64,000 nucleotides of DNA from Harriotta raleighana. Its lineage: Eukaryota. The first letter of the stretch is position 1; each line of letters begins with the position of its first letter. The position numbers were made by a program, and so were the translations under genes. Positions 20,501 through 51,129 of this stretch are shown here, in pieces. The notes beneath the pieces are model-generated. The model was not told where the DNA came from, searched no databases, and worked only from the letters and a program-made list of their open reading frames with translations. Location: assembly GCA_050575255.1 (NCBI GenBank), contig JBNZDD010013732.1:21152244-21216243 (forward strand). The letters run 5' to 3'.

Positions 20501-20801
<301 letters not shown>

Positions 20802-22901: not shown

Positions 22902-25900
22902 GTGAGTAAAAATGGGTTCCCTGTTGCCCACAGTGCGGTCCAACCTGTCTTCCTTGAGCAGAGATTTTTTTGTGTGTGTTGCATGTGTAGCAGTTACATC
23001 ATACGCACACATCATTTTGAACACTACCCACAGATCACCCTGAATCTATAGAGAATACAGCAGCCAGAATGGCAAGCTCCTCATATAATAAGTGATTCAA
23101 TTCAAAACTAGGGAATCGATGGGGAGTAAACAACAGATCATAGAGGGGGAAAGGGACTTACTCACTTAGAAATCAGTAGGCCTTTGGCTGGGCTTTTTGA
23201 TTGTTTATTAGCATTGATCAAGATAAAATCAACACAACATTCTTACTAAGTTTCAACCTTTTTTTTGGTGCATTACAGGGCAGGTGGGTGAGGTTCAGAC
23301 TTGCTGTAGTTTTGTTGAAAAGCTGTGAGAAACCCCATCAACTAATTGACACATCCTAAGAGGAATGGTGGTGGAATTCCGCCAACCCTTCTCTCCCCCC
23401 AATTAAGCCAAGTATGTTCCTCTCCTCTGGAGGCCTTGGTTGATTGTTACAAAATGTTTACATAGACACCTGATGGTCTTTTCCATTGAGGACCAGGTTT
23501 GCTATTTGTGCAGCAATAAACAGCCGATTACTCGATGAGTACCCCCCCCCCTAACTAGTTGTGCAGTTCAAAGGAGGATCAACATTTTTGCATCATTCAG
23601 ACAGTGATGCATGACAAGTAGCATTTCCTCTACTTTGAAGAAAGGCTGCCCACAAAGGTTCCAAAGAAGGCTGAGATCTACGGGAAGGAGTGTTCTGTGA
23701 ATTTTATTTTTGAATCATTACAAATATCATTTAAACCCCATTTGGGCAGACCTAGGGAAATATTGCCTCATTGGATTCCGTTCCTGTAATCAGGATCAAA
23801 TGGGCTAAATCAATGTGGACATTTACAAGTTAACTAAATAAGGCAATTTCTAGCTTCAGTTAAATGAAAACGCAACTGGCCAAATTCTCCAATTCTAGAG
23901 AAAGCAAATAGCCGTTAAATGCTTACCACTGATAGACTGAGTGGTGAATCATTTAGTTATTAATGAATTTTATGTTGCTGCTGTATTTTCAAAGAATTTA
24001 AAATAATCTGTGGAAGCCCCATTAATTAAGAAAGTTTACACAGGGTGTGTTGGGGGTGTGGTATCAATCAAACCAATTCCTATGTCCTGCTTCTACCCCA
24101 AGACTGTTTCCTCCATTTATTTATTTTTGTGTCTGTAATCACTAATACTTACAGAATTGAAATGAATTTGCCCTCATTTCAATTTGTGTTGGTAGTTGGG
24201 CCCTTTTTTTACTCACTACCCATGACTGTACCCTCACAGCTTTCACATTTTTCAGAGCTCATGCTCTCTAATGCAGATCCACTAGATGTCCTCAGAGACC
24301 AACCCATTTCTCCTCCTTGTCCTCTTCTGGTCTCCAACCATACACTGCAGGTTTCCCCGAATGACACAAAAACATTTCGAATATAACCATGTTTTTGCAA
24401 TGAATCCATATGGCAGTTTGTGCGTTGCGTTAGTGGAAGTATTCTTCCAATGTAGCACCACATGCATAACCATCAAGACTAACATCTCTCAACATGTCAT
24501 GTCATTGTGTGAAAGTGGCTACTACTGTTTGTGGTTTCTCTCTCCCCTGACCACCACCCGCCTCCCCCTTCCTCAAAACACAACGAATGCAGTGTATATT
24601 ACAGCATGGAATTTTTTTGAGATACGAGTGCAAATGTTAACATTTATGAATGCTTCAATCTAATAACTATTTTTGAACCTTTTTTTCATTTTTTTATTGC
24701 AAAGGTTGAAGCCTGTTTTCTCAGCATGCTGTGATTTCAGTAGTTGTGCATGGATTAAGAAACAGCACCTCCGGTCTTCCTTTTTATTAAAAAAAATTAC
24801 GAGCTCATTCATACACGCACATATTTATTATGTGCATCTTGTGAACGATTCCCCAATGAGCAGAGAGATTAATTGGTTCAAATATTTGGTTTCATTTCAG
24901 GAAACAAAATCAAAATGGTTTGTCTCCCTCAAGATTTTGTTCCTTTTAAAAAGTGCCGGATTCAATTAGTGTCACATTGAAACAATTGGTGTAGTTCTAA
25001 GGAAGACAAGAGGTTGAACCACCCAGCATCACGAGCATTTATCAGGCTTTTGATGCTCCTTTCCTAATTAAGATACCAGTGCTATAATGACTGACCTTGG
25101 CATTTGCATTGAACAGGCCTGACGCTGCATGATGTGATGTTTTTTTCTCACAGCTAATGGGTACTGTAAACAACCTTTTGCTGAAAGTTTAAACATTTTA
25201 CCACTCAAAACCCCAAAAATTGCAAAGAAAGGGGATTCTGCTACAAATCCCTCTCATTCATCACCCCCACCCCTCCCCTGCGCCTTTTTTCCTCAATCAT
25301 AGCGGTGACCCTTGCTTGGCCAATAATTTTGATATAAATGGCCTTAGGTCAGTGCTTGACTCAGTTGAGAGCTTGAAATATTATGTCTGCAGTGTGACAT
25401 AATGGCTTTTTCAACAAAAGTTGATACCTTTCCATTTAAAAAAAATAGTACTGGGGTTAATATGAAAGAATAAGGCTTTATGTTTATTGAACAAGTACAT
25501 CAATTAGCACAATTACCATTACCATTTCGACATCATGTGCTTGAAAGAATTAGATCTGTATTTTATGAACTAGTAAAATCTGACTTGTTCATTTCTCTTG
25601 CAATAATTACAATGAACATGTTAATTGTAATCAATTTTCTATGAGCATCCTGTGCACATCCCCCCAAAACGTATGACCAAACTACTCGGAAAAAATGTGT
25701 ATCGTGACTCAATTTCCTGTAATTGCCTGTTTTTTTTGCTAAATTGTTATAAAACGGGATGCGCGTGTGTTCTTGAACAGATCTACGATTGAAATTCATG
25801 CAAACTTCTTGTGGCCCACTGGAAAAGTTGCCTCGCTGGCAAACTCGATTGCAAGCTTGAAAATACTTTAAAATGTTTATCATCAATTTCAAAGTGATAT

Positions 25901-26106: not shown

Positions 26107-26280
26107 CCAAGATCTCCATCTACAAGAGAATGAAACTCGCATGTTGTTTTGATTGCGGAGGCTGTGAGCGTGACTGCACTTGCATGTCAGGCAGTGTACA
26201 TAGTAACATGGACACCCTTGAGAGAACCTTCCCACTTTCTTCTGTCTCTGTTAATGATTGCTCCACCAGTTTACGTGCCT
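26107..26280 (+). CDS. KCNMA1: KCNMA1 STREX alternative exon (174 nt, phase 1-1): PKISIYKRMKLACCFDCGGCERDCTCMSGSVHSNMDTLERTFPLSSVSVNDCSTSLRA
   Basis: Acceptor ttatAG, donor CCT|gtaagt; 174 nt; clear homology to the cysteine-rich STREX insert. Confidence 0.96.
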
Positions 26281-38121: not shown

Positions 38122-40000
38122 TATATCTTATTTTGTGTATAAGAAATCCCTACATAGGTCTAAATACATGTTGAGCCACCATAGGTGTTATGTATTCTGT
38201 ATAATATTTAACACATAAATGCTCCAGACATGGAAACTATTCCTTTATTAACTGCAAACCTATTCCTTGGAACTGTTAGCCCTGCATGGACATACTAAAG
38301 AGGGTGTGGATATAACTGGTCTTATAAATGTAGCCTATTTAGGCCAACCGGAAGAGATACTGAAGCTTTAAGAAGAGAGGTCAGAAATTTCTATTGCTGA
38401 AGGCAGTTGTTAGCACGGGCTTGTTACTACTGTGTTTCTTACTAGGGTCACTGGAAACTAAATAGCGAGTGGCTTGTTGTGATGTGGACAGGCTGGAAAT
38501 GATGCTGTCCGCATTTTGTGCTGTGAATTCAGTGGAAGGTTTATGTGTGGTGACATGGAAATTATGTTTGCATTTTCATTTTGGTAGTGCTGCTGGTTGT
38601 CATGAAACTCACACTGACAGTTCTTTACCACCAGGCAGTAGATTCTTCTTGCAACATTTTTTGTGCAAGACAGATGCTACACAGTTATTTTTCAGAGTCC
38701 TTTTGCTCTGGACTATTCCAAGCGACAGATGCCAGGACAAGAACTATTTCCCATGAACATTTCTGTCACAGCTTTGCCTTGAGCGCAAAGTGTGACCTTT
38801 TGTGAATAAAACAAAAGCTTTTATGAAGAAGCGAAAACCTTCATCCAGAGCAAGCTCAAAGCAAATTTCAGGTCCTGTTCCCTTTCTCTGTCCACCTGGA
38901 TTAGAGGTCCAGTTTCACCCCAGCTCTCCAAATGCAGGCAGCAATCGGCCTTGTCACTTTAGAATTTAATAATTGTCGTGAGGCAGTTCTTATGTGAGTT
39001 TTATACAAATACATTCGGGAGAGAAAGGGATGCAGAGAACCAATTAGATTGCCTGGGAACTCTTGCATGCTCAGTTCTGCATAGTCACCACACTTTATTT
39101 TTACTGTCAAGACTGTTTGCAGCTAATTTAGGTCTTATCTTGATCATAGAATTTAGCACAATTGTTTATTGGGTGGGGGTTAATTTTTCCAGCGGAAATC
39201 TAGTGGGTCTGATTTTTAAGTGGATGAGTAAACCCTCCCTCCCTGCTGGCCTCTTCCTATCCTCCTTTTTTCCCTCTGCCTTTCATCCATTCCCTACTCT
39301 AATTGTAGACTTTTCCCCCAGCAATCCACAAGGAATTGATGGACAGGAATGTTCTAGCACAGGATGCTGACTGCATGATAGCAATAAAAACTGCCTTTTG
39401 TCTGCCTTGTGCCCTGTTTCCTTGTGTTGTAGTTAACCACGACATAAGGTGGTACAGGTGCACAGGTTTTGAACTTTAAAGCAAACTGAGCCAACACAAT
39501 CCCTGCCATTTCTCCCTTGCTCTGCTCTATTGATCGAGGTAAGAGAGACACACCTGTGCACTGTTTGGAAAATCCTCGAGGTTGGCACGCTTTGAGACGA
39601 ACGGGGAAGCACAACATTCAAAAAGCATTTGCCGATAATGGCACCCATTATACAGTATATACACTTGGTTCATTTCACCACTGATAGAATTTAAACTCAT
39701 GTGGAGTATAAACACTGGCATGTACTTGTTGGCACTGTTTTGTGCCAACAATGTACTGTACAATCTGTGTAAATCTATGTAGAATGTCTGCTGGAGATGA
39801 ACGGCATTCAAAGTAGCAATTTTCTGGATGAAAGTTCAAAACGGCGTGCATACTTGATGTCGACCATTGAAAATCAAGTGCTTTGTACTTAATGAATCTA
39901 TTCCCCACTCCTGTTGCTTGTCATGGACAATCTCTCATGGTGCATGACACACATTTATTGTCATTTTCTTAACCTGTCATTTTCTTTCCATTGTCTTCAG

Positions 40001-40033
40001 CAAAGTATAACTTTAACGGATTTATCACCTCAA
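40001..40033 (+). CDS. KCNMA1: Probable KCNMA1 alternative 33-nt exon at site C2: (P)KYNFNGFITS(I)
   Basis: Strong acceptor tttctttccattgtcttcAG and donor CAA|gtaagt; phase 1-1 with an open frame; flanked by TGCATG and YCAY clusters. Confidence 0.75.
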
Positions 40034-41614
40034 GTAAGTCATTCATTTGTCAATAATTATTAATTTTTCTGTTGCCTCCCACATGGTTTATTTCTGTATC
40101 CCTCTCCTTTAATCCATTTATCTTTCTGCCCGCAAATATCATTAGGTTCATTCTGTTTCATCAGTATCGTTCTTTCTGAGGCAGAGCAGTGATCATTCAG
40201 TTTTATTTACAATCTGTTTAATCGCTGGGATTTGGGGATCTGAGGACACCATTGGTTGAGACTGGTGACCTTTTTGACAGGTGAAGCAATTTGAGTTCGC
40301 TTAACCAAGCTATGATGTTACCATGGAAACGGGCCCTTCCCCCATGCACCTTGTCTTGGCCTCTCTCCCCCTGATCTTGCTTCTGCGCCTATCTCTCTCA
40401 CCCTCTGGCCTTTCTCCCTCATCAATTCTCCCCTCCACATTCTAGCCTTGCTCCTGCTCTGGTCCTGAAATCCTCTCTAGGTGAGATTGCGCCTCACTTG
40501 CCTCATCTGATCAGTCACCATCAGACACAATCCACAAGGGCTGCCATTATCATCCCAAAGTGCCATTCGATTGACTGATGCAACGTTTCAAAACATTCAG
40601 GCCTGTTTAATCAGATTTCTCTGCCTTCGCCGGAGCCCATACACATATCTAAGGTCAAACTCTCTCAATCCTAAATGCTAGCCTTGAAACTAGATGTATC
40701 TACGTCAGCGCATGCTTGCACCACATCTCCCAAGTACCGATGTCAGCACTATTCGGGGGAGCTTTCATTTCTTCAACTCCTGCTCATGGCAAGTCTTACA
40801 AACCCTGGTCTGTGCATAGATCAAAAATAATTGCTACACATGGTTAAAGTACCCGCTGAGCTGTCCTCTGTTAGTTTCACTGCTCCATCTGGATTTGCAA
40901 TCTGCTCAGATTTCAAATTTCTAATTTGAAAATGAAACTGGAAAGGTCCTCTGTGGGTTCTCTTAGCTACGTGCAATGGAGTAAGGTAAGGGAACCACCA
41001 GGCTACATTTTTGATCTCATGGTCAAAAACATGAGAACAAATTACCTGGACACTGAATTTAGAGATTGCAGTGCTTATTCTCTAATGACAATTTATTTTT
41101 CTTTGATGTCATTCATAGTTCACTTTTTACTATTAAGTTAAAACAAAGTACTAATTTCTTGCAGTTGTGCACTGTTGAGGGATGATGAGATGGAGGAAAG
41201 GGAGTGAGAGATATGGGGGCATGAGAGCAAAAGAGGAGAAACTTGTGCTGAAGAACAGCAGTGATGGTTGACAGATAGTGGAGGATTAGTCTGACTCTAG
41301 GTGCAGATATAGACTGTATTATGCAATACATGAGATATCTCAAACTCCACAACATTACATGGCTAAATTAATAGATGGCAGTCAGAATGACAGTGTAACA
41401 GATGCGCAAGAAAATTGTGTTTGTGTGCAAAGAAAAAAACGGTTGAGGTTTTCAGTATTTTTTAGATTGAATGTTCAACAATCAATCCATCCAGAGTAGC
41501 AGTGTGGTCACTGTGTTTGTTACTCTTAATCAGAGCTGGCCGCTGCATCTTAAAACAATGTGCATGGTACAACTATGTAAATGATCTTTCTACAAGATCT
41601 TTCTAATATTGCTT

Positions 41615-41930
41615 ACAACAACAACAAATTACATTTGTATAGGATTTTTCATGGCAAAAGAATGTATCAAGCTGCTGGACAGTCAAGAATTTACATCCGA
41701 GCTGGGTGTTAGGATCAGGAGGGGTAGAGAGCAGGGAGGGTGGGGGGGGTGGGAGGATGACTAAAGGCACTGTCAGAAGAGGAAGGTCTTGAGATGGCCA
41801 TTTAATTGAGGAGGATGAGGCGAAGGGACTATGGGATGGAGTTCCAAAGGTTTAGGGAAGAGAGGTGGAAGGCCTGACCAATGATGGTAGGCAGCCAGGC
41901 CTGGGGACATGGAATAATTCAGAGTCCAAC
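41615..41930 (-). mobile_element. Decayed L2-clade LINE 3' fragment
   Basis: (caa)n aattacatttgtatag...ggaaggtcttgaga...ggatggagttcca. Confidence 0.7.
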
Positions 41931-44900
41931 GACCTGGTCATTTACCACTTCATCTGGTATTGTTTTGAACCTTGATTTCTAATTACAACGCATTGCATGC
42001 TGGTGGGTATCAAGCAGTCTGTTTTGGATATTGGATGAATTTCACGGACAGCAGGTGGTGCTACAACTTAAGGAATAAACTGTGACTGAGATCACATACA
42101 AAGTACACAAATTGTGCTATAGATATGATAGCAAGTTTATTTCCTTATTCTCTTGTTTATTTTCCCCAAGTATTTCACAACCCTACAGCCCTTGTAAATG
42201 TTCCAATTCAAGTCGATTAAATAAACTGCAGACAAATCCAACCTCTCTTATTTTTCTTTGTAAGTCTATAAAGTTTTACAACACCAGAGGAGACCACCTT
42301 GAGCTTGAACGAACTCCCCACTGCTGGAGCTATCTGCTCACAGCCCATTGCCATTGCTCTTCCCCCTCCCCCCATACATAGGCCTTTTGTTTTTCCTCTA
42401 GTATTTATCCAATTCCCTTTTAAATGTTGCAGTGGACTCGCCTTTCAACAGCTATTTGGGGAAAGTTATTTCATATTATAGCAATCAAACAAACATTTTC
42501 TTCTTATCTCCTTACCCCGTGCTCCCCCACTCCCCACCTTTTTTTTCATCTCATGAAAAAAATTCAATTTCTGGAGCTTATCCTCTGTTTTACAGTTTTT
42601 AGATGGAATCTGATATTATTTTGTAACCAAAGTTGCAATTCCGATTTACAGTGTTACTGCTTGTGGCAGAAGTGTAACTTGTGCCTTTGTAACATTAGGG
42701 AAGAGGGTCCGTTGTTTGTGATTTTGGCAAATGTAATGTTCAGTAGTGGAGTCACTAGCAATGCTTTAGCACATGTTGCTTTACTAGCCACCGAACAAAG
42801 GCCCTTAAACTCTCGAGTTAACCAGGCTTGTGAATATAAATAATCAGATTCAAGGAACTCCACGTTTTTGTTGATGAAACAAATGCATATTTTTCTTTTT
42901 GTATCTGATCTTTTAAATTGCCAACCAGTCTTTACATAATTAATAAGAAATGTGTGGCAAGCTCATCATCTGCCTCGTTTCGCGCAAACAGACAGCAGCC
43001 GTCTTGATCATTCTGGATCCTCTGTGAAACTGCCACACTGCGTATTCTCAAACTAATGCTGTATATGTTTGACAACGCACAGATGAATCCAGGAGTTATC
43101 GGTGCGGGGGTTTGAATCTAAGCGGCAGCTGACGTTAGAATCAGCCTTCATGTATAGCTCTAAGCTAGTTCGGGGAAGCTGTGCTGCTGTGGTATGAAGG
43201 ATTTTTTAAAAATGCCTTCAGTAATGTGTGGAAGAGAAATATTTTTCAAGAAAAAAAGCCATTGGCCTGCATTAAAATTGAAATGAGCTTAATAAGTAAT
43301 TCTGAAAATTTGTGACACTTTGTGATCATTTAACTAAGATTCAAAATAATGACTGCATTAATTAAAACCCATCCAATTACCTGGGATTAGCTATTAAAAG
43401 CTGAAGTATCAAATGTGGAGTTATATATCTTCGGGCTGTTTGCTTCAGAAATCTAGTCTGCCTCAAGCATTTGATGTGAATTTTATACGTCTTTCAAAAT
43501 CGAAATTGTAAAGACTTTTTTCCATAGGAAATTATAAATAATGCAATGGCAGTAATGCAATATTTATTTTTAACAAGTTAATTCATGGGGAGATGCTTGT
43601 GATTATTCATGGGGCGATGTTTATGTCATTAGATGCTATTAAAGATGTTTGCTCTGAATATTTATATTTATTATTGTGCATGTCTCCCGTGCCTCTCTAA
43701 AGTTTAGATTAATCACACTTCTGATTCAAATTATTTCATACCATTTACGGGGCATTGTTTATTACGATTTAGTGTTACTGCACTTACTGTTGAAACTTGG
43801 ATATTGGTTGCTTGTACTCTGGTCTGATCATGTTATCAAACTGTTGGCGAATATGGGAAAATCTCCTTAAAATTTGGTATCAATATGATCTGTGATTGGT
43901 GTCACCTGTCACTAATACCAATAATTTGACAGATAAGATGTATTTTCTTTATACTGTAAATGTCATAATCCTGGATCCATGGGTTTGGTCAAGTATTAGC
44001 TTGTGTGTGTGTGTGTATGCCTGTGTGTCTACATACACACTGCTGTGTGTACGCATCCTCATGAATGTATATATGTGTGTGTGTGTGTATGTGCAGTGGA
44101 GGAAGGACTAAACTGATATCCTACCTCTAAAAATCGCCTTAAAGTATTGAAGATAAATTAACTGACTTTAAAGCCTGTCATAGTAGGTCTTTGACCACTG
44201 CAGTTAATGTCTCTCCCCTATTGGCATCAGTGCCTTCTGCTCTGGAGATATTTGGCTTGTAATGTTGTGCTGTCACCAGCAGAAACTTGACCTCCTTCTC
44301 AGTCCTGCAGTGTTTGTAACTCAGTACTTGATTGATTTCTCAGGAAAGGATATACAGTACTTAGGTTAAGGGCTTATTATTGAAAGAACGAGTTTGTAAA
44401 ATATTGTTCCGAGTAACGCACAAAATACTGAAGAGTTATGGGTATGGGTGGGAGATGTCCCATTTGTCTCCTCACCAAACTGCAATCTGGATATTGCTCA
44501 GTTACGTGCTTTGCGGGAAGAAGGGGGAAGATTCACCTGTCTTGCTCTTAACATCACAATGTTTGCAACTGAGCACCATGTCATGTGGAGAACAAGAATG
44601 CCTCAGTGATCAAAATGTGATCTTATTTTGATGATGTAAGGCGGAGGGGCTCCAAGATACAGATCCAGAGGGTGGGGGCAGAAAGGCCAAAGGCTCAACC
44701 ACCAATAGTGGAGCAAATAGAGTGGATGTGGAGCAGGTAGAGGAGCAGATAGTTGGTAAAGATTTAGTGGGTCACAGAGGTTTACCCCACCAGAGAAGCC
44801 AGGAGAGAAGGGGGGTGATTGGCTCACAGAGTTAAGATTGGCACTTACAAACTGGGATGCAAGGAAGCATGTCAGCAGCCCAGTGACATTGTTCCAGGTG

Positions 44901-45545
44901 ACTCCTTTCAGGTGGGTCAAGGGTGACATCACATATAAAGGAGGTCTCCGGCCTACCCTCCTTGAAGATGGCAGGACTCAATGGACTCACAGAAGAAATA
45001 TTTTTATATTAAGTGTGTTTTTATTTTTGCCGTAATCCAATTGGCCAAATTTATTTGATTGATTTATGTCTTAAAGATTGCTACCGATGATGTAAACTAG
45101 TCATTTGCTCTATGATACAATATTGTGCAAGTGGTTAAAAAAAACGTGTGATGATAGTCTCAGGAGAAGGTGATGGAGATAATGAGTGTGTATGATAATG
45201 AGTAGTACGGTAAGTATTCATGCACTGGGTCTGGCGGTGCTGACGCTATCCAGATTGTGAACTGTAACAGACCAAGTAAATAGAGGCCCTAGCACACCGT
45301 GTGCTTATTCTTCCATTCCCCAACTTGTCATCGCATTTACCACACCTTAAAGGTTACAACTGAGATCAGACCTGGGTATTGATTCATCTTGCTGACGTTT
45401 GGCATTCTGTTTTCCACATCTGTTTTTTTTTCTGTTGCAGAAATTAAGCAAAAATGCCCATTTTTGCCAACAATAACATTGTGAAAATGCAAATGCCTCA
45501 TTATGCTTTGGTTCTTAATGTGTCCACTTTTTTTTTACTTGGCAG

Positions 45546-45833
45546 TAAAGGATGAAGCTGAACCAGGTTTGCTAAATGACTCACTTAAAGCCCACTCCAC
45601 CAAGCCCCACACATTGTCAAATGCTGTACCTATTACAGAAGGCCCTGAAGCTGTGCGGCTTGTTAATACCCGTAAAGGAAGCCTCCTCTTGTCCAGTGAC
45701 TCTTCACTCAGGCGCCTAAGTCTGCTGAATACAAGTGATCAAGGAAGAGGTGCCCAGTGTAGGTTACAGCGTGCATGCAGCTTGCCTGTGAAATACAGAT
45801 ACCACCCCAACAATGCTACATGCGACGATCTCT
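45546..45833 (+). CDS. KCNMA1: Probable KCNMA1 alternative 288-nt (96 aa) exon at site C2: (L)KDEAEPGLL...RKGSLLLSSDSSLRRLSLL...RACSLPVKYRYHPNNATCDDL
   Basis: Acceptor ttttttttacttggcAG, donor TCT|gtaggt; exactly 96 codons, phase 1-1, stop-free (inside ORF 45503..45943); not repeat-like. Confidence 0.72.
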
Positions 45834-46369
45834 GTAGGTTTCCCCTCGACTGCACTCATCAGCTGGTGCAGACACATATGCATGAAATTCTAGCTTTGGG
45901 TGTTTTTATTTTGTTCCCCCAAAAACCCAAATCTGCCAAGTGATGATAAGACAGTGGGGCCCTCCATATGTGATCCTTTTCTGATCTGGTGTGAACTCAA
46001 CCTCTGCTCAATAGCAACCTAGACATGGGGGAGATGGGGGGTTGGGGATTGGGGGGGATAAGCGATTGGAAAAGGGGAGAATTTAAAAATGATCTTACAT
46101 AAATAAATCAAATTTCCTGGTTGGTACAAAAAAGGTCTTGATTATAAGAACTGTCATTTTCTGAGTTTAAACTTCACTGTGTAAACTTCACTGTGTTTTG
46201 AAGTTTAAGTGATCTTTAGAAAGTGGTTGCACTACAATCACAGCAGTTTTGTTGTGTTGACGTAACATATTGTTAAGTAGAAATTTCAGGATACCCCAAA
46301 AAACAGTAGCAAAGTTATATGATATTTAATATAATTTGTCACTGATGATTGTCGGCCTGTGCCTTCCTG

Positions 46370-46498
46370 AGCAATTGGCTGCTGGGTTTTGCCCACAAAA
46401 TACATAATCACTACACTTCAGTATATACTGTGAAGCACTTTGAGACATCTTGAAGATTTAATCAAGCGCAATATCAAAGGCAAAGATTATTATTATTT
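46370..46498 (+). mobile_element. SINE 3' tail fragment
   Basis: gcaattggctgc...gtgaagcactttgagacatc...atatcaaaggcaaaga(tta)n. Confidence 0.7.
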
Positions 46499-48642
46499 AG
46501 AACTCTTTCTATGTTTTGTATGTAAATATCTGTCGCTGTAGATTCTAACCCACCATTGTACATATCACTCTGTGTACATTATTCAGAGAGTGCAACCTCT
46601 TAAGTTTGAAGAAGCAATGCACTGTCCCAGTCTGATGATACCCAAAAGCACAGACAAATCTCTTAACAACTAGGAAATGAAGAACAAAATGACATGCAAA
46701 TGTTGAAAACGGCTTGAGATTTTTTTTGCAATAATAGATTACACCTTTAAAGGAAAAGAATACGTCTTTCCCAGGTTTTGTGGATCACTCTCTCGGGGAA
46801 TCATGTCATCTTATCACTTGCCAGTAATAACAGTTTGAAGTTTGACTAAACATCTTCCAGAAAATGATTGAGAATTCCCATGCCAGAACTTTTCTTTTAA
46901 CTTTCAAACCAGACAACATCCCAGTCCGCCCATATTAAACAACCCTTGAAATTATTTTCTTTCCAGCTACAAGTCTGGCCGTGGCTCGAGTCTTCTGTAG
47001 GCAGACACACTTTAGGAGTTTTTTTTAAAAAAAAGAAATATTTTTATAAACTAATCTCTTACTAATTCCATACTAGACAATATTGCCAATTGCCCACAGA
47101 AAGTGGTGGCAGATGTCATTACTAACAGGTTAAAAGTCACAGCGAAATGCAATTTAAATGATCAGGCTGGATATTTGAGTTGTGTCTAAGCAAAACTTCC
47201 AACAGTTAAAATAATGCAGTTCACTTCAATGGAGGACCTTTTTTTGCTCTTTTGTCGTGTGCCATTCTTTGATTCAGGCTTGTAGCTATATACACACACA
47301 CACATACAACATTCATTGTGGGTGCCTGAACTAGTTTCAGTTTGGCATGACTCCCTGAGAGCTCAAAAGGGTTAGCAGAGTACAGTATATGGGAGTAGGG
47401 AAATGTGTAGTAAGCAAACCCCAGACAGTAACCTTGTACAGTAACCAAGTTTTTTTTTTTTGGAATTCCGTATTTCCATTTATTTCTTTGTCAGCGATGG
47501 ACCTTCTTGACAATTACTTGAGGCATTGTTTTTATATTCTCTCTATCTGCTCTTCTCTCGTTACTCAATTCTAACTGACTGTTAACTCTGCACTATTTTC
47601 TGTTTTGCTCAGATTGTTGTACCAATACATGTGGCTTCTCTCTGTAGGATAGTTGAAATTGTGAAAAAACAATTTTTAAAAAAGCATCCTTTATTTCTTG
47701 ATGTACACAAAGATATACATGTGTATTTGTGGGTCTGTTTTTCCACAACAATATACAGTGTCTCCATTTTACGGTATAACTTTTATAACTCCACCATACC
47801 CATCCCGACCCCAACTCAAGTCCGAAACACATGACTATAAATTTGTTGTTATTGTTGAAGCACTTTGAGATGTCCTCCCGTCTTGCAAGGTTCTAAATTG
47901 AATGCAAGGATCATTATTATTTTATTATTATTGATCACAAAAGCCCTTTATTTGAAGGACTCGGGAAATATTCTATCTCATCAGTAAATTCATGAATGCA
48001 GTCTGACTTTCTTGAATTTTTCTGAACGTGCCATAAGTAAGGTGTCGGCTGAATTTAGCAAGATAACCAAATCTCTTATTCAGTAAATGTAAACCTTGAA
48101 CTGAATGACAGATGAGATATACAGAAACAGTGTGGTGTGGGTTTAAAATCTTTGGAGTGTTAAAACACGGCTAATGTAGACAACTTGAATTAATAGTGTC
48201 TCCTTAATGGATTAAATCCTTGGGTTACACTTTGCCTGGCTTTTTAACGGGCAACTGCACTGACATTTTCTGAAAGGCTGGAGATTACACTCGGTAGGAT
48301 TTTTTCACACAACTTGTTTGTTTTGCTCAATCCTGCAAATTCCTGCATAGTTCCCGTAGTCACTGCTGGTTTAACATTGAAGGCTGTGAGCCGGAAACAA
48401 CGCGTTAATGCCGCACGCTCTAGAGTGACACCTTCTTTAACCCAAGTGGTTTGATTTCTACTTAAAAATAATTGTTGTTGTATTTTAGATATTTAACCTG
48501 TACAAAGTCTTCAATTTTGTTATTTACGCTTTCTGAGTGGGGCAGTTGGTTCCTTCACCCTCAACCACCCAAATTAAAACTGTGCCTTCCCTGTGAGTTC
48601 TGTTTTGATAAACATTGTTTTCAATTTTCCTTTAATTGATAT

Positions 48643-48644
<2 letters not shown>

Positions 48645-48674
<30 letters not shown>
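48645..48674 (+). repeat. (TG)15 microsatellite
   Basis: Perfect TG dinucleotide run. Confidence 0.95.
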
Positions 48675-48675
<1 letters not shown>

Positions 48676-48962
48676 TTAGTGTTTAGCAATATTGAGTGCT
48701 AGATTACCTTAGTCACGCCTTTAGGGTTTTGAACTGGTTTGTTTTTGATTAATACGTTAGCCCGTACTTAGTCCTCATTTGATTTTCTTTTCTTTTCCCC
48801 GAGTAACCCGTTCGTTGCTATGTAGAGGAAATCTTTAACTTTCATAATGAGTCACTTTCTGTTTAAATATGCAATTTTTAAAAAAATTGTTTAATTTCCA
48901 TTTCTGGCATACTTCTGAAAATGGCTCCTAAACTCACATCTTCCGTATGTTTGCAGTTGCAG

Positions 48963-49056
48963 TTGAAGATGAACATCCATCAGCACTGTCACCCAAAAAA
49001 AAGCAGCGCAACGGAGGCATGCGAAACTCACCCAACGGTTCACCCAAATTGATGAG
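48963..49056 (+). CDS. KCNMA1: KCNMA1 exon (94 nt, phase 1-2): [31 protein letters not shown](R); alternative acceptor at 48957 adds 6 nt
   Basis: Tandem acceptors ttgcAG|ttgcAG|TTGAAGAT; donor GAG|gtaaga. Confidence 0.97.
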
Positions 49057-51129
49057 GTAAGAAAAGACAGCTAAAGAACTCTCTGTTTGAAGAGAAAGAG
49101 AGCGAGCGAGAAAAATCCTTAAAGGCTGAAGTATTTATTCTGTCAGCCTGTCAGCGGTTAATGATAGAGCTGAAAAATTTCTGTCATGAAAGAGGGTAGG
49201 CAAAGCTGTTAGAGAGAATGCAGGCTTTAAACTCTCAGCTGTCACCTCAGTCTGTCCACATGTATTTCTTAAACAGCAATGGCACTAATGACAGCAGTAA
49301 CCAATCAGAGAGACTCATACGGTTACCTTCCCTCAGGCTATTCCCTGTGTCTACGAGTCCCTTGGAGTACTGTTTTCTGTACTTGAGGCCATATGTGAGA
49401 TGTATCGTAACAATGAAAAATGAACCCAAATTTTTACATTCCTTTTATCTTGTCCATTTGCATTAAATTGTCGTTAATTGATTTTGACTCCGAGGAGAGA
49501 GAGAGGGCGCGGGAGTGGGTGGAAGCTAAATAATTGGCAGGTTCGGTAACGGGAAGTTTACGAGCTGGTGATGAGTGAGGGGAGCAATTGGTTGCTACCG
49601 TGTCACGGGTTAACCTGCACTCGGTGTTTGACAAGTAAACAGCTTCATCCACTTAGCATATGAAACAATCATACAAGAAAATTGCTTGGGGTTTACAGAA
49701 GCTCCAAATCTTATTTTTTTGCAGAACAGAGGGTCCCTATTTACAATGTAAAGTATGCACCAACCTCTTTTGATCTCTACACAGTAATAATTCTGAGGAG
49801 TGGGTTGAACTCTTATGGTGCGCTTCAAAGCTGTGCCGAACTTTTGCTGCTGTAGGGTAATCCTTTATATTACTGGCCCTCGGGTGGCTGAATGACAGGT
49901 CTTCTGTGCTAGGTGGAGCTTTCTCAAGTTGTAGCCTTCAGCAAAATGTGGAATTACTGAACAGAGAATCACCCGGGCTTTCAGAAATTTGTTTCCTGCA
50001 GATATATCATACCTTAAATATTACATATTTTGGAATTACAAGGTACATTTTATGGGCAATATGAAGTGCTGGTTTAAAGCAGCCTAAGGGGTTCTTATTG
50101 CGCAAGGTGAAAAAAATGGTATATATTGTATCAAATATGGTTTTTACAGGCAGATATGCCTCAAGGTCTTTGTAAATAAGTAATGATCAACAGTTTGGAT
50201 GTGGGTTTTGAAAAGCATGCCTTTGTCAGTTTGCATGATGGGAGCTCAACATTTCAAAGAGCAGCTTGCTTTCATTGCCTGGCGAAGTGGGACTGAGGGA
50301 GAATAGTCATCCCTGCTAGTGCTGTCTAGTCAGCATCAAATTGGAATTGCTAAACGCAGCTTGAACACCAAGCGCAGAACTGTTTGAGCTTTCAATATAA
50401 CAAGTTCTAACGAGTGCCAGCCCAACATTCTTTACATGAAATTAACACCCTTCTGACGGACTGCAGAAGGTCATCGGATACCCCGTTCTAATTGTAGTCT
50501 GCGAATGTTAGGTCTATTAATCATAACGCATTTGTTCGGATCCATCAGAACAGAGCATTACAGTGAAACAAATGTTGCAGTTATTCCCTGTGAGTAGCAG
50601 CGTTCGGCAGAGTTTGCCAGTGACAGGCTGCGATGAGTGACAGTTTGTGAAAGATAGCTATCTTGGTGGAGCTTTACAGCGCCAGTCAAGGCAGTCAGAA
50701 AGGATTGAAGTGACAGAGGTCCATTGACTGAATGTTGAAACACACAGAGCATCATGAAATATTCAGCCGCGGTGTAAAATCACTAAATGATTTCTCACTT
50801 ATTAGCACCTGTACTGACTGCGTACATCTAGACGACTGAGATGTTAATGGACAAATGTTTTGTCATGATGATTGCGAAGGGCTGAGTGAATGTGGAATTT
50901 GAAGGGAAATGAACATGAGGTTTTAGAAAGAATAATTTCCTCTGAAAATAGAAGTTTTGGGACAGTCAGATTGATGAATAAAACACCAAACCCTGGTTAC
51001 ATGGCCTGGTGGGCTTTGTGATTTTGCTCCTGGCTGTCACTTGTCAGGCAGCACAGGTTGCTGTATGCTTGTAATGCGTTAACCACAATTTTTGCCCTTA
51101 CTGCTGCTCGCAGATTTGATGATACAATT

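Follow-up and report, generated by a model that had tools for sequence, protein, structure and literature searches.

The whole stretch of DNA analysed here, 64,000 nucleotides and called the window below, holds the middle of a KCNMA1 (BK/Slo1) gene. Ten exons between 6673 and 57827 are matched by a goose isoform (E ≤5e-5). Textbooks use site 2 of BK to show how splicing tunes excitability. Papers are cited below by PMC number and from excerpts of them, and one such excerpt places splice site 2 within the RCK1-RCK2 linker (PMC3840924). The exons, exon candidates, splice signals and motif blocks given here are on the plus strand. The site is bordered by two constitutive exons recognised from the goose mapping and from splice signals, an upstream one at 20720..20796 that encodes ...KKCGCKR and ends in phase 1 (...CGGC|gtaagt), and a downstream one at 48957..49056 that encodes ...EDEHP... 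and has tandem acceptors at 48957 and 48963, TTGCAG occurring twice in 48951-48962 so that the two lie 6 nt apart. Inside the 28-kb intron between them sits the subject of this work, at 45546..45833, which sequence and homology identify as a KCNMA1 splice site 2 cassette exon of 96 codons, phase 1/1, for the RCK1-RCK2 linker. Its 288 nt are free of stops, preserve the frame and have AG/GT ends.

The two ends of this exon differ in strength. Its polypyrimidine tract and AG (45523..45545; ...ttttttttacttggcag|TAAAGG) yield a peptide starting with ‘LK’, a start that human isoform 4 shares, as does P0136, a model from a hummingbird. On a simple home-made weight matrix this acceptor scores 8.5 bits, seventh among the 1688 AG sites of the intron. 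The genomic open reading frames P0199, P0202, P0204 and P0205 have a read-through context similar to it, and in several fish-like genomic read-throughs the acceptor context is nearly identical. The donor, TCT|gtaggt (45834..45839), is weak on the same matrix at -1.3 bits (rank 280 of 1593 GT sites in the intron), the exon frame continues open as far as 45940, and in-phase GTs at 45567, 45735 and 45759 all outscore it. The 96-codon length consequently rests on homology and not on signal: insert ends agree across animal groups, and it is because of this agreement, with the donor matching the insert end in spliced tetrapod and toothfish models, that the donor is placed at 45834. A first-pass annotation, made from the letters alone, had described a strong T-rich acceptor, a TCT|GTAGGT donor and 96 stop-free codons in phase in unique sequence. 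These are as it described them, with the acceptor strong indeed and the donor weak. The exon has one match in its own 1.10-Gb genome and is single-copy, and no tandem repeat was found over 45546-45833.

What else does the intron hold? The first-pass annotation had set the long exon apart from STREX, rightly, as the true STREX exon is a separate alternative exon of 58 codons at 26107..26280, recognised by its match to the STREX insert in PMC3984161 (in excerpt) and in bird models; it is intact, and its acceptor is atypical, purine-rich and scores -6.7 on the home-made matrix. The best-scoring in-phase candidate of the intron for a further alternative exon at site 2 is 33 nt long (40001..40033), and a motif resembling it, of KYxYNG type, occurs upstream of the long exon in the toothfish model P0212. 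A 9-nt candidate microexon at 23279..23287, put forward by splice-site scores only, does not code for IYF, nor does any of the 13 listed nine-nucleotide candidates. The 9-nt microexon as the source of the bird ‘QVK’ was considered and rejected, since a tandem acceptor is seen both in P0136 and in P0196, a genomic read-through. Some bird models (P0097-P0102, P0177 and P0178) have an extra segment of ~52 aa at site 2, before STREX or the long exon, and in those frog models that have a 15-aa insert it closes with FAV before the EDEHP exon, as if an acceptor further upstream were used. High-copy repeats lie at 46367-46693 and 41462-42115, where each of the four mapped runs reaches very high depth; their loose ends resemble a shark-type SINE tail. 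TGCATG occurs at 45772-45777, inside the long exon, and at 45879-45884, 46 nt past its donor; presumably it is an Rbfox-type element, one that could drive neural or muscle inclusion of the exon. Away from this locus, the genome’s own acetylcholinesterase exon (L002:1360-2964) has an 11-residue Pro/Gly-rich insertion relative to its best PDB match.

An exon long present in vertebrates

An open stretch of 96 codons after an AG is not rare in this intron, being found at 41 of its 1676 AGs, so that the open frame by itself is weak evidence. Could it be a chance frame? When nothing but 54 tetrapod inserts goes into a profile, it picks out the window frame at E 3.5e-27, the next best of 2910 six-frame segments being at 0.46, and with position and boundaries also conserved this homology refutes chance. 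A search with the window peptide gave, as 2 of 165 candidates, a goose KCNMA1 isoform model (40/86 identical) and a 95% relative. The goose insert as query had 213 matches, of which 120 were listed, every one a KCNMA1 model, from birds, turtle, amphisbaenian, newt, caecilian and frogs. Site 2 could be parsed in 191 of 195 proteins, and 180 of the 191 carry a long insert at the same junction, 98 aa long in 151. The orthologous insert is 91-99 aa in isoform models of birds, turtles, lizard, newts, caecilian and frogs. Compared with 18 long tetrapod inserts, the window peptide is identical at 37-43 of 93-95 aligned residues.

Among 1.84 billion representatives searched, 18 matched. One of them, P0198, is a repeat protein that clusters with hypothetical proteins from JGI/IMG; it was dropped as a false match, and 17 were kept. 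Thirteen of the representative matches are genomic read-throughs, judged fish-like by their likeness to the toothfish model. That model, from Dissostichus eleginoides (KAK1904963.1; P0212), is the teleost representative and has the insert joined to the EDEHP exon. The ends of the exon are also shared: it starts with K after the split codon, and its last residue falls no more than one position from where tetrapod inserts stop. The predicted KCNMA1 isoforms of these vertebrates, among them those of Pelodiscus (XP_075790825.1), Lissotriton (XP_078499491.1), Leptodactylus (XP_075114015.1) and the toothfish, have the junction, the ends and two conserved blocks, described below, in common with the window. 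All homologous isoforms are computer-predicted gene models in which the insert is without functional annotation. There are differences as well. The predicted inserts are mostly 98 codons against 96 in the window, whose long exon is without a tandem NAGNAG acceptor; the first 28 residues are divergent, with just 2-8 identical to those of tetrapod inserts; and the window has an extra RRLS. Almost certainly, then, 45546-45833 is a real exon orthologous to the long site 2 insert of non-mammalian vertebrates. It is ancient, and as it is already modelled in public isoform records it is not new, which disposes of the novelty earlier attributed to it.

Is it used in the organism whose DNA this is, or is it a relic in decay, its donor weak, silent or rarely included here while used in other vertebrates? 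Besides that donor, the divergence of the first 28 residues would suit a relic, as would the sequencing runs, where none of the 15 listed joints (of 58) from runs X1, X2, X3 and X9 over 39500-49300 uses 45546 or 45833. Contigs of runs X1-X3, which come from a relative, continue unspliced through the exon and introns alike in that interval, and X9, the one raw RNA run, has no depth over the exon. A relic would however not be expected to keep both blocks and both boundaries intact, and the close relative P0002 has 90 of 95 residues identical with no indel, the exon frame being kept both there and in the relative seen in the contigs. The contig pieces over the exon also have fewer letter differences (27/452 and 37/562) than those over the intron (51/654, 56/712 and 70/514), a weak contrast. 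That the exon is a silent or rarely included relic here is very unlikely.

As it is found in a teleost and in tetrapods, the exon is ancestral to bony vertebrates regardless of the lineage of this genome. By one marker gene the genome is likely that of a cartilaginous fish: its acetylcholinesterase exon scores about 820 bits against the Torpedo entries of the PDB, 744 against the krait entry 4qww and about 693 against human and mouse entries, with no teleost entry identified for comparison. An exon sought as lactate dehydrogenase, for another marker, reads as malate dehydrogenase instead. If the genome is that of a cartilaginous fish, the long exon would date to the jawed-vertebrate ancestor, before the split of cartilaginous from bony lineages. 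That it was ancestral, with relatives in amphibians, had been supposed in the first-pass annotation, and the newt, caecilian and frog models bear this out. Kukuljan et al. in 2003 reportedly cloned a Xenopus Slo whose splice site 2 carries 99 additional residues (xSlo99), and the long exon is probably the counterpart of that insert. Frog models have orthologues of 96-98 aa; no Xenopus sequence was among the homology matches. The 15-aa insert of two frog models fits the reported xSlo15. As excerpted, the site 2 lists in PMC3840924 and PMC3989361 name no long insert. A literature search brought up no title or abstract opening on a long exon, on its link with e22 or on its motifs, within a coverage that does not extend to the principal papers on splicing in chick, turtle, teleosts and skate.

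Short forms and mammalian e22

Mammals are missing from the 120 matches listed out of 213, and from the listed cluster members, where clustering at 90% can hide isoforms. The earlier supposition was that mammals had lost the exon. Did they? The e22 insert of human isoform 4 (Q12791-4; PMC3984161) and of rat (PMC3393747, Table 1), both from excerpts, has its first residue exactly where the long exon has its own. Aligned ungapped and by eye to the orthologue of the turtle, P0110, human e22 is identical at 12 of the first 22 positions and rat e22 at 13, for which the binomial chance, at p=0.10 per position, is ≤2e-7. Direct comparison of the window peptide with human e22 gives just 4 of 22 (by eye; chance 0.06-0.17), and this is why no likeness to the mammalian insert was seen at first pass. 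That statement was correct for the direct comparison and fails once turtle and bird orthologues serve as a bridge.

The bridge makes truncation a better fit than loss. Mammalian e22 is very probably the 5′ part of the long exon, to judge from the alignments, and mammals likely kept about its first third and lost the two motif blocks, truncating the exon instead of losing it whole. Site, order and ‘LK’ start are common to both, with 29 aa for e22 against 96 codons and with e22 lacking both blocks. Short forms made by way of internal donors are found in models from a sparrowhawk (26 aa; P0195) and from Pseudophryne (45 aa; P0164), where the insert ends just before the RKGS serine. The hummingbird model P0136, whose genomic context is in P0196, has its LK start by a tandem acceptor. 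A short-fragment search with mammalian e22 brought out one candidate, the sparrowhawk short form. In the genome studied here there is no in-phase GT at either the bird or the frog short-form donor position. The rat ‘+29’ extension (excerpt of PMC3393747) might have been what is left of the long exon, a reading that was rejected, no likeness being evident by eye.

That e22 is instead an independent exon, the long one having gone completely in mammals as first supposed, is what the 4/22 identity between window and human e22 would lead one to expect. Against it are the 12-13 of 22 identities with the turtle from the first exon residue onwards, the shared ‘LK’ start, a bird short form of 26 aa to set beside the 29 aa of e22, and the placement of e22, in an excerpt of PMC3393747, directly before the downstream constitutive exon. 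An independent origin is accordingly improbable.

Two conserved blocks and a possible 14-3-3 site

Conservation in the insert is concentrated in two places. Block 1, VNTRKGS in the window (pattern VNxRKGS; 45662..45682), contains a PKA-type R-K-x-S that begins at 45671 and has its serine codon at 45680, and block 2, LQRACSLPVKYRYH (45764..45805), contains RACSLP at 45770, with the serine codon at 45779, within an L-x-R-x-x-S-x-P of 14-3-3 mode I type. Among eight clade representatives the mean pairwise identity is 0.85 for the RKGS block, 0.88 for the RxxSLP block and 0.36-0.50 elsewhere. The first-pass annotation had presented RKGS, RRLS, RACSLP and three Cys as a phospho-switch module. All are present in the window peptide, the three motifs jointly in 0.23% of 20,000 peptide shuffles, and comparison retains only part of the module. 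All of the distinct long inserts from tetrapods (53 of 53) have RKGS, and 48 of 53 have LxRxxSxP (with its tail, LxRxxSxP-KY), in a tetrapod set that is bird-heavy and not independent. Each of the kept representatives (17 of 17) contains both motifs, a count biased by the selection of representatives for likeness to the query. RRLS (45710..45721), the second PKA-type motif, is lineage-specific and not conserved, RRxS occurring in none of 54 tetrapod inserts and 1 of 17 representatives. Nor do the cysteines stand as a feature: in place of C77, the Cys of RACSLP, the closest relative has Arg and tetrapods mostly have Leu; tetrapod inserts contain 0-3 Cys, the one preceding block 2 being kept in 41 of 53. 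The distance from serine to serine is 33 in the window and in 50 of the 53 tetrapod inserts, and ranges from 24 to 56 among the 17 representatives.

Structure prediction suggests a disordered loop. AlphaFold2, with an alignment of 19 sequences, gave a pTM of 0.13 and a mean pLDDT of 57, with no helix of 4 and no strand of 3 residues, and its highest pLDDT is in the two conserved blocks. No Pfam family matches the insert peptide and the ESM Atlas gave no usable match. None of 27 BK-type sequences in the PDB covers the turtle insert, and the two that reach 14 residues into it are, by their length, probably STREX. Two short conserved blocks with a variable and seemingly disordered spacer are typical of linear motifs.

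R-K-G-S-L fits the PKA consensus. Block 2 fits the -5 Leu and -3 Arg of AMPK-family sites and is without the +4 Leu that belongs to the full consensus as excerpted from PMC6890249. Both conserved serines are probably phosphosites. If so, what would read them? For 14-3-3, as described in excerpts of PMC2860806, mode I RXXpSXP sites dominate, the dimers often bind a tandem pair separated by some 15-19 residues or more, one class of such pairs lies within 40 residues in disordered regions, and the dimers act as coincidence detectors for two kinases. The insert has a mode I motif, a basophilic site 33 residues from it and predicted disorder, as in the tandem sites of class IIa HDACs, CRTCs and tyrosine hydroxylase, which likewise combine RxxSxP with a second basophilic site within 40 residues and disorder. 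The likeness of the window insert to those systems is one of motif only, and there is no +4 Leu. Chick cochlear BK co-precipitates with 14-3-3gamma, knockdown of which raises BK expression (excerpts of PMC3235137 and of the review PMC13694676), and the former puts the 14-3-3 site of BK in the distal C-terminus, not in this insert.

The best explanation overall, to which we give a probability of roughly 0.6, is that this is an ancient KCNMA1 cassette exon for a disordered loop, two serines of which, once phosphorylated, likely let a single 14-3-3 dimer dock in tandem. Taken on its own, actual clamping of the insert by the tandem sites is put a little below even odds. The conserved sequence extends beyond what such docking needs, with LVNN before RKGS and the tail PVKYRYH running past the serine of block 2, and it may serve another partner. 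The main competitor, that the blocks dock a different partner or fold onto the gating ring, phosphorylation being secondary or acting directly on gating without 14-3-3, has a substantial though lesser chance. The surplus conservation and the pLDDT peaks in the two blocks are in keeping with it, and for a direct effect on gating there is the precedent of STREX, which alters PKA regulation through a serine of its own (excerpt of PMC3840924). STREX is in that respect a parallel for what is proposed here, an alternative exon at site 2 with a kinase-regulated serine, yet it is Cys-rich, 58-59 aa long and unrelated to the long exon in sequence. What a different partner leaves without explanation is that R-3, S0 and P+2 are among the invariant residues of block 2, and that the spacer of 24-56 residues is never under the span needed by a 14-3-3 dimer.

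How might tandem 14-3-3 docking work? The 96-residue exon would be included by regulated splicing at its weak donor, and would insert a loop of 96 residues, predicted to be disordered, between RCK1 and RCK2. RKGS would be phosphorylated by PKA, and LxRxxSxP by a kinase of the CaMK/AMPK family or another basophilic kinase. A 14-3-3 dimer might then clamp the doubly phosphorylated loop and so alter surface expression or Ca2+/voltage gating. Where an internal donor is used, as in birds and frogs, the resulting short form would lack the two serines, and mammalian e22 would likely be such a short form made permanent. The full scheme, a two-kinase coincidence switch of jawed vertebrates that internal donors turn off and of which mammals fixed the off form, with e22 as its stump, is on balance rather unlikely.

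Excerpts of PMC3840924 and PMC3989361 give the site 2 variants as ZERO, +3, STREX and +28/29. A fourth and long site 2 exon across fish, amphibians, reptiles and birds would give mammalian e22 an origin. The exon is ordinary insofar as databases already model it, and it is the link to e22 and the two-site architecture that are of interest: two near-invariant phospho-motifs would offer an isoform-specific site for the 14-3-3 control of BK reported for the chick cochlea.
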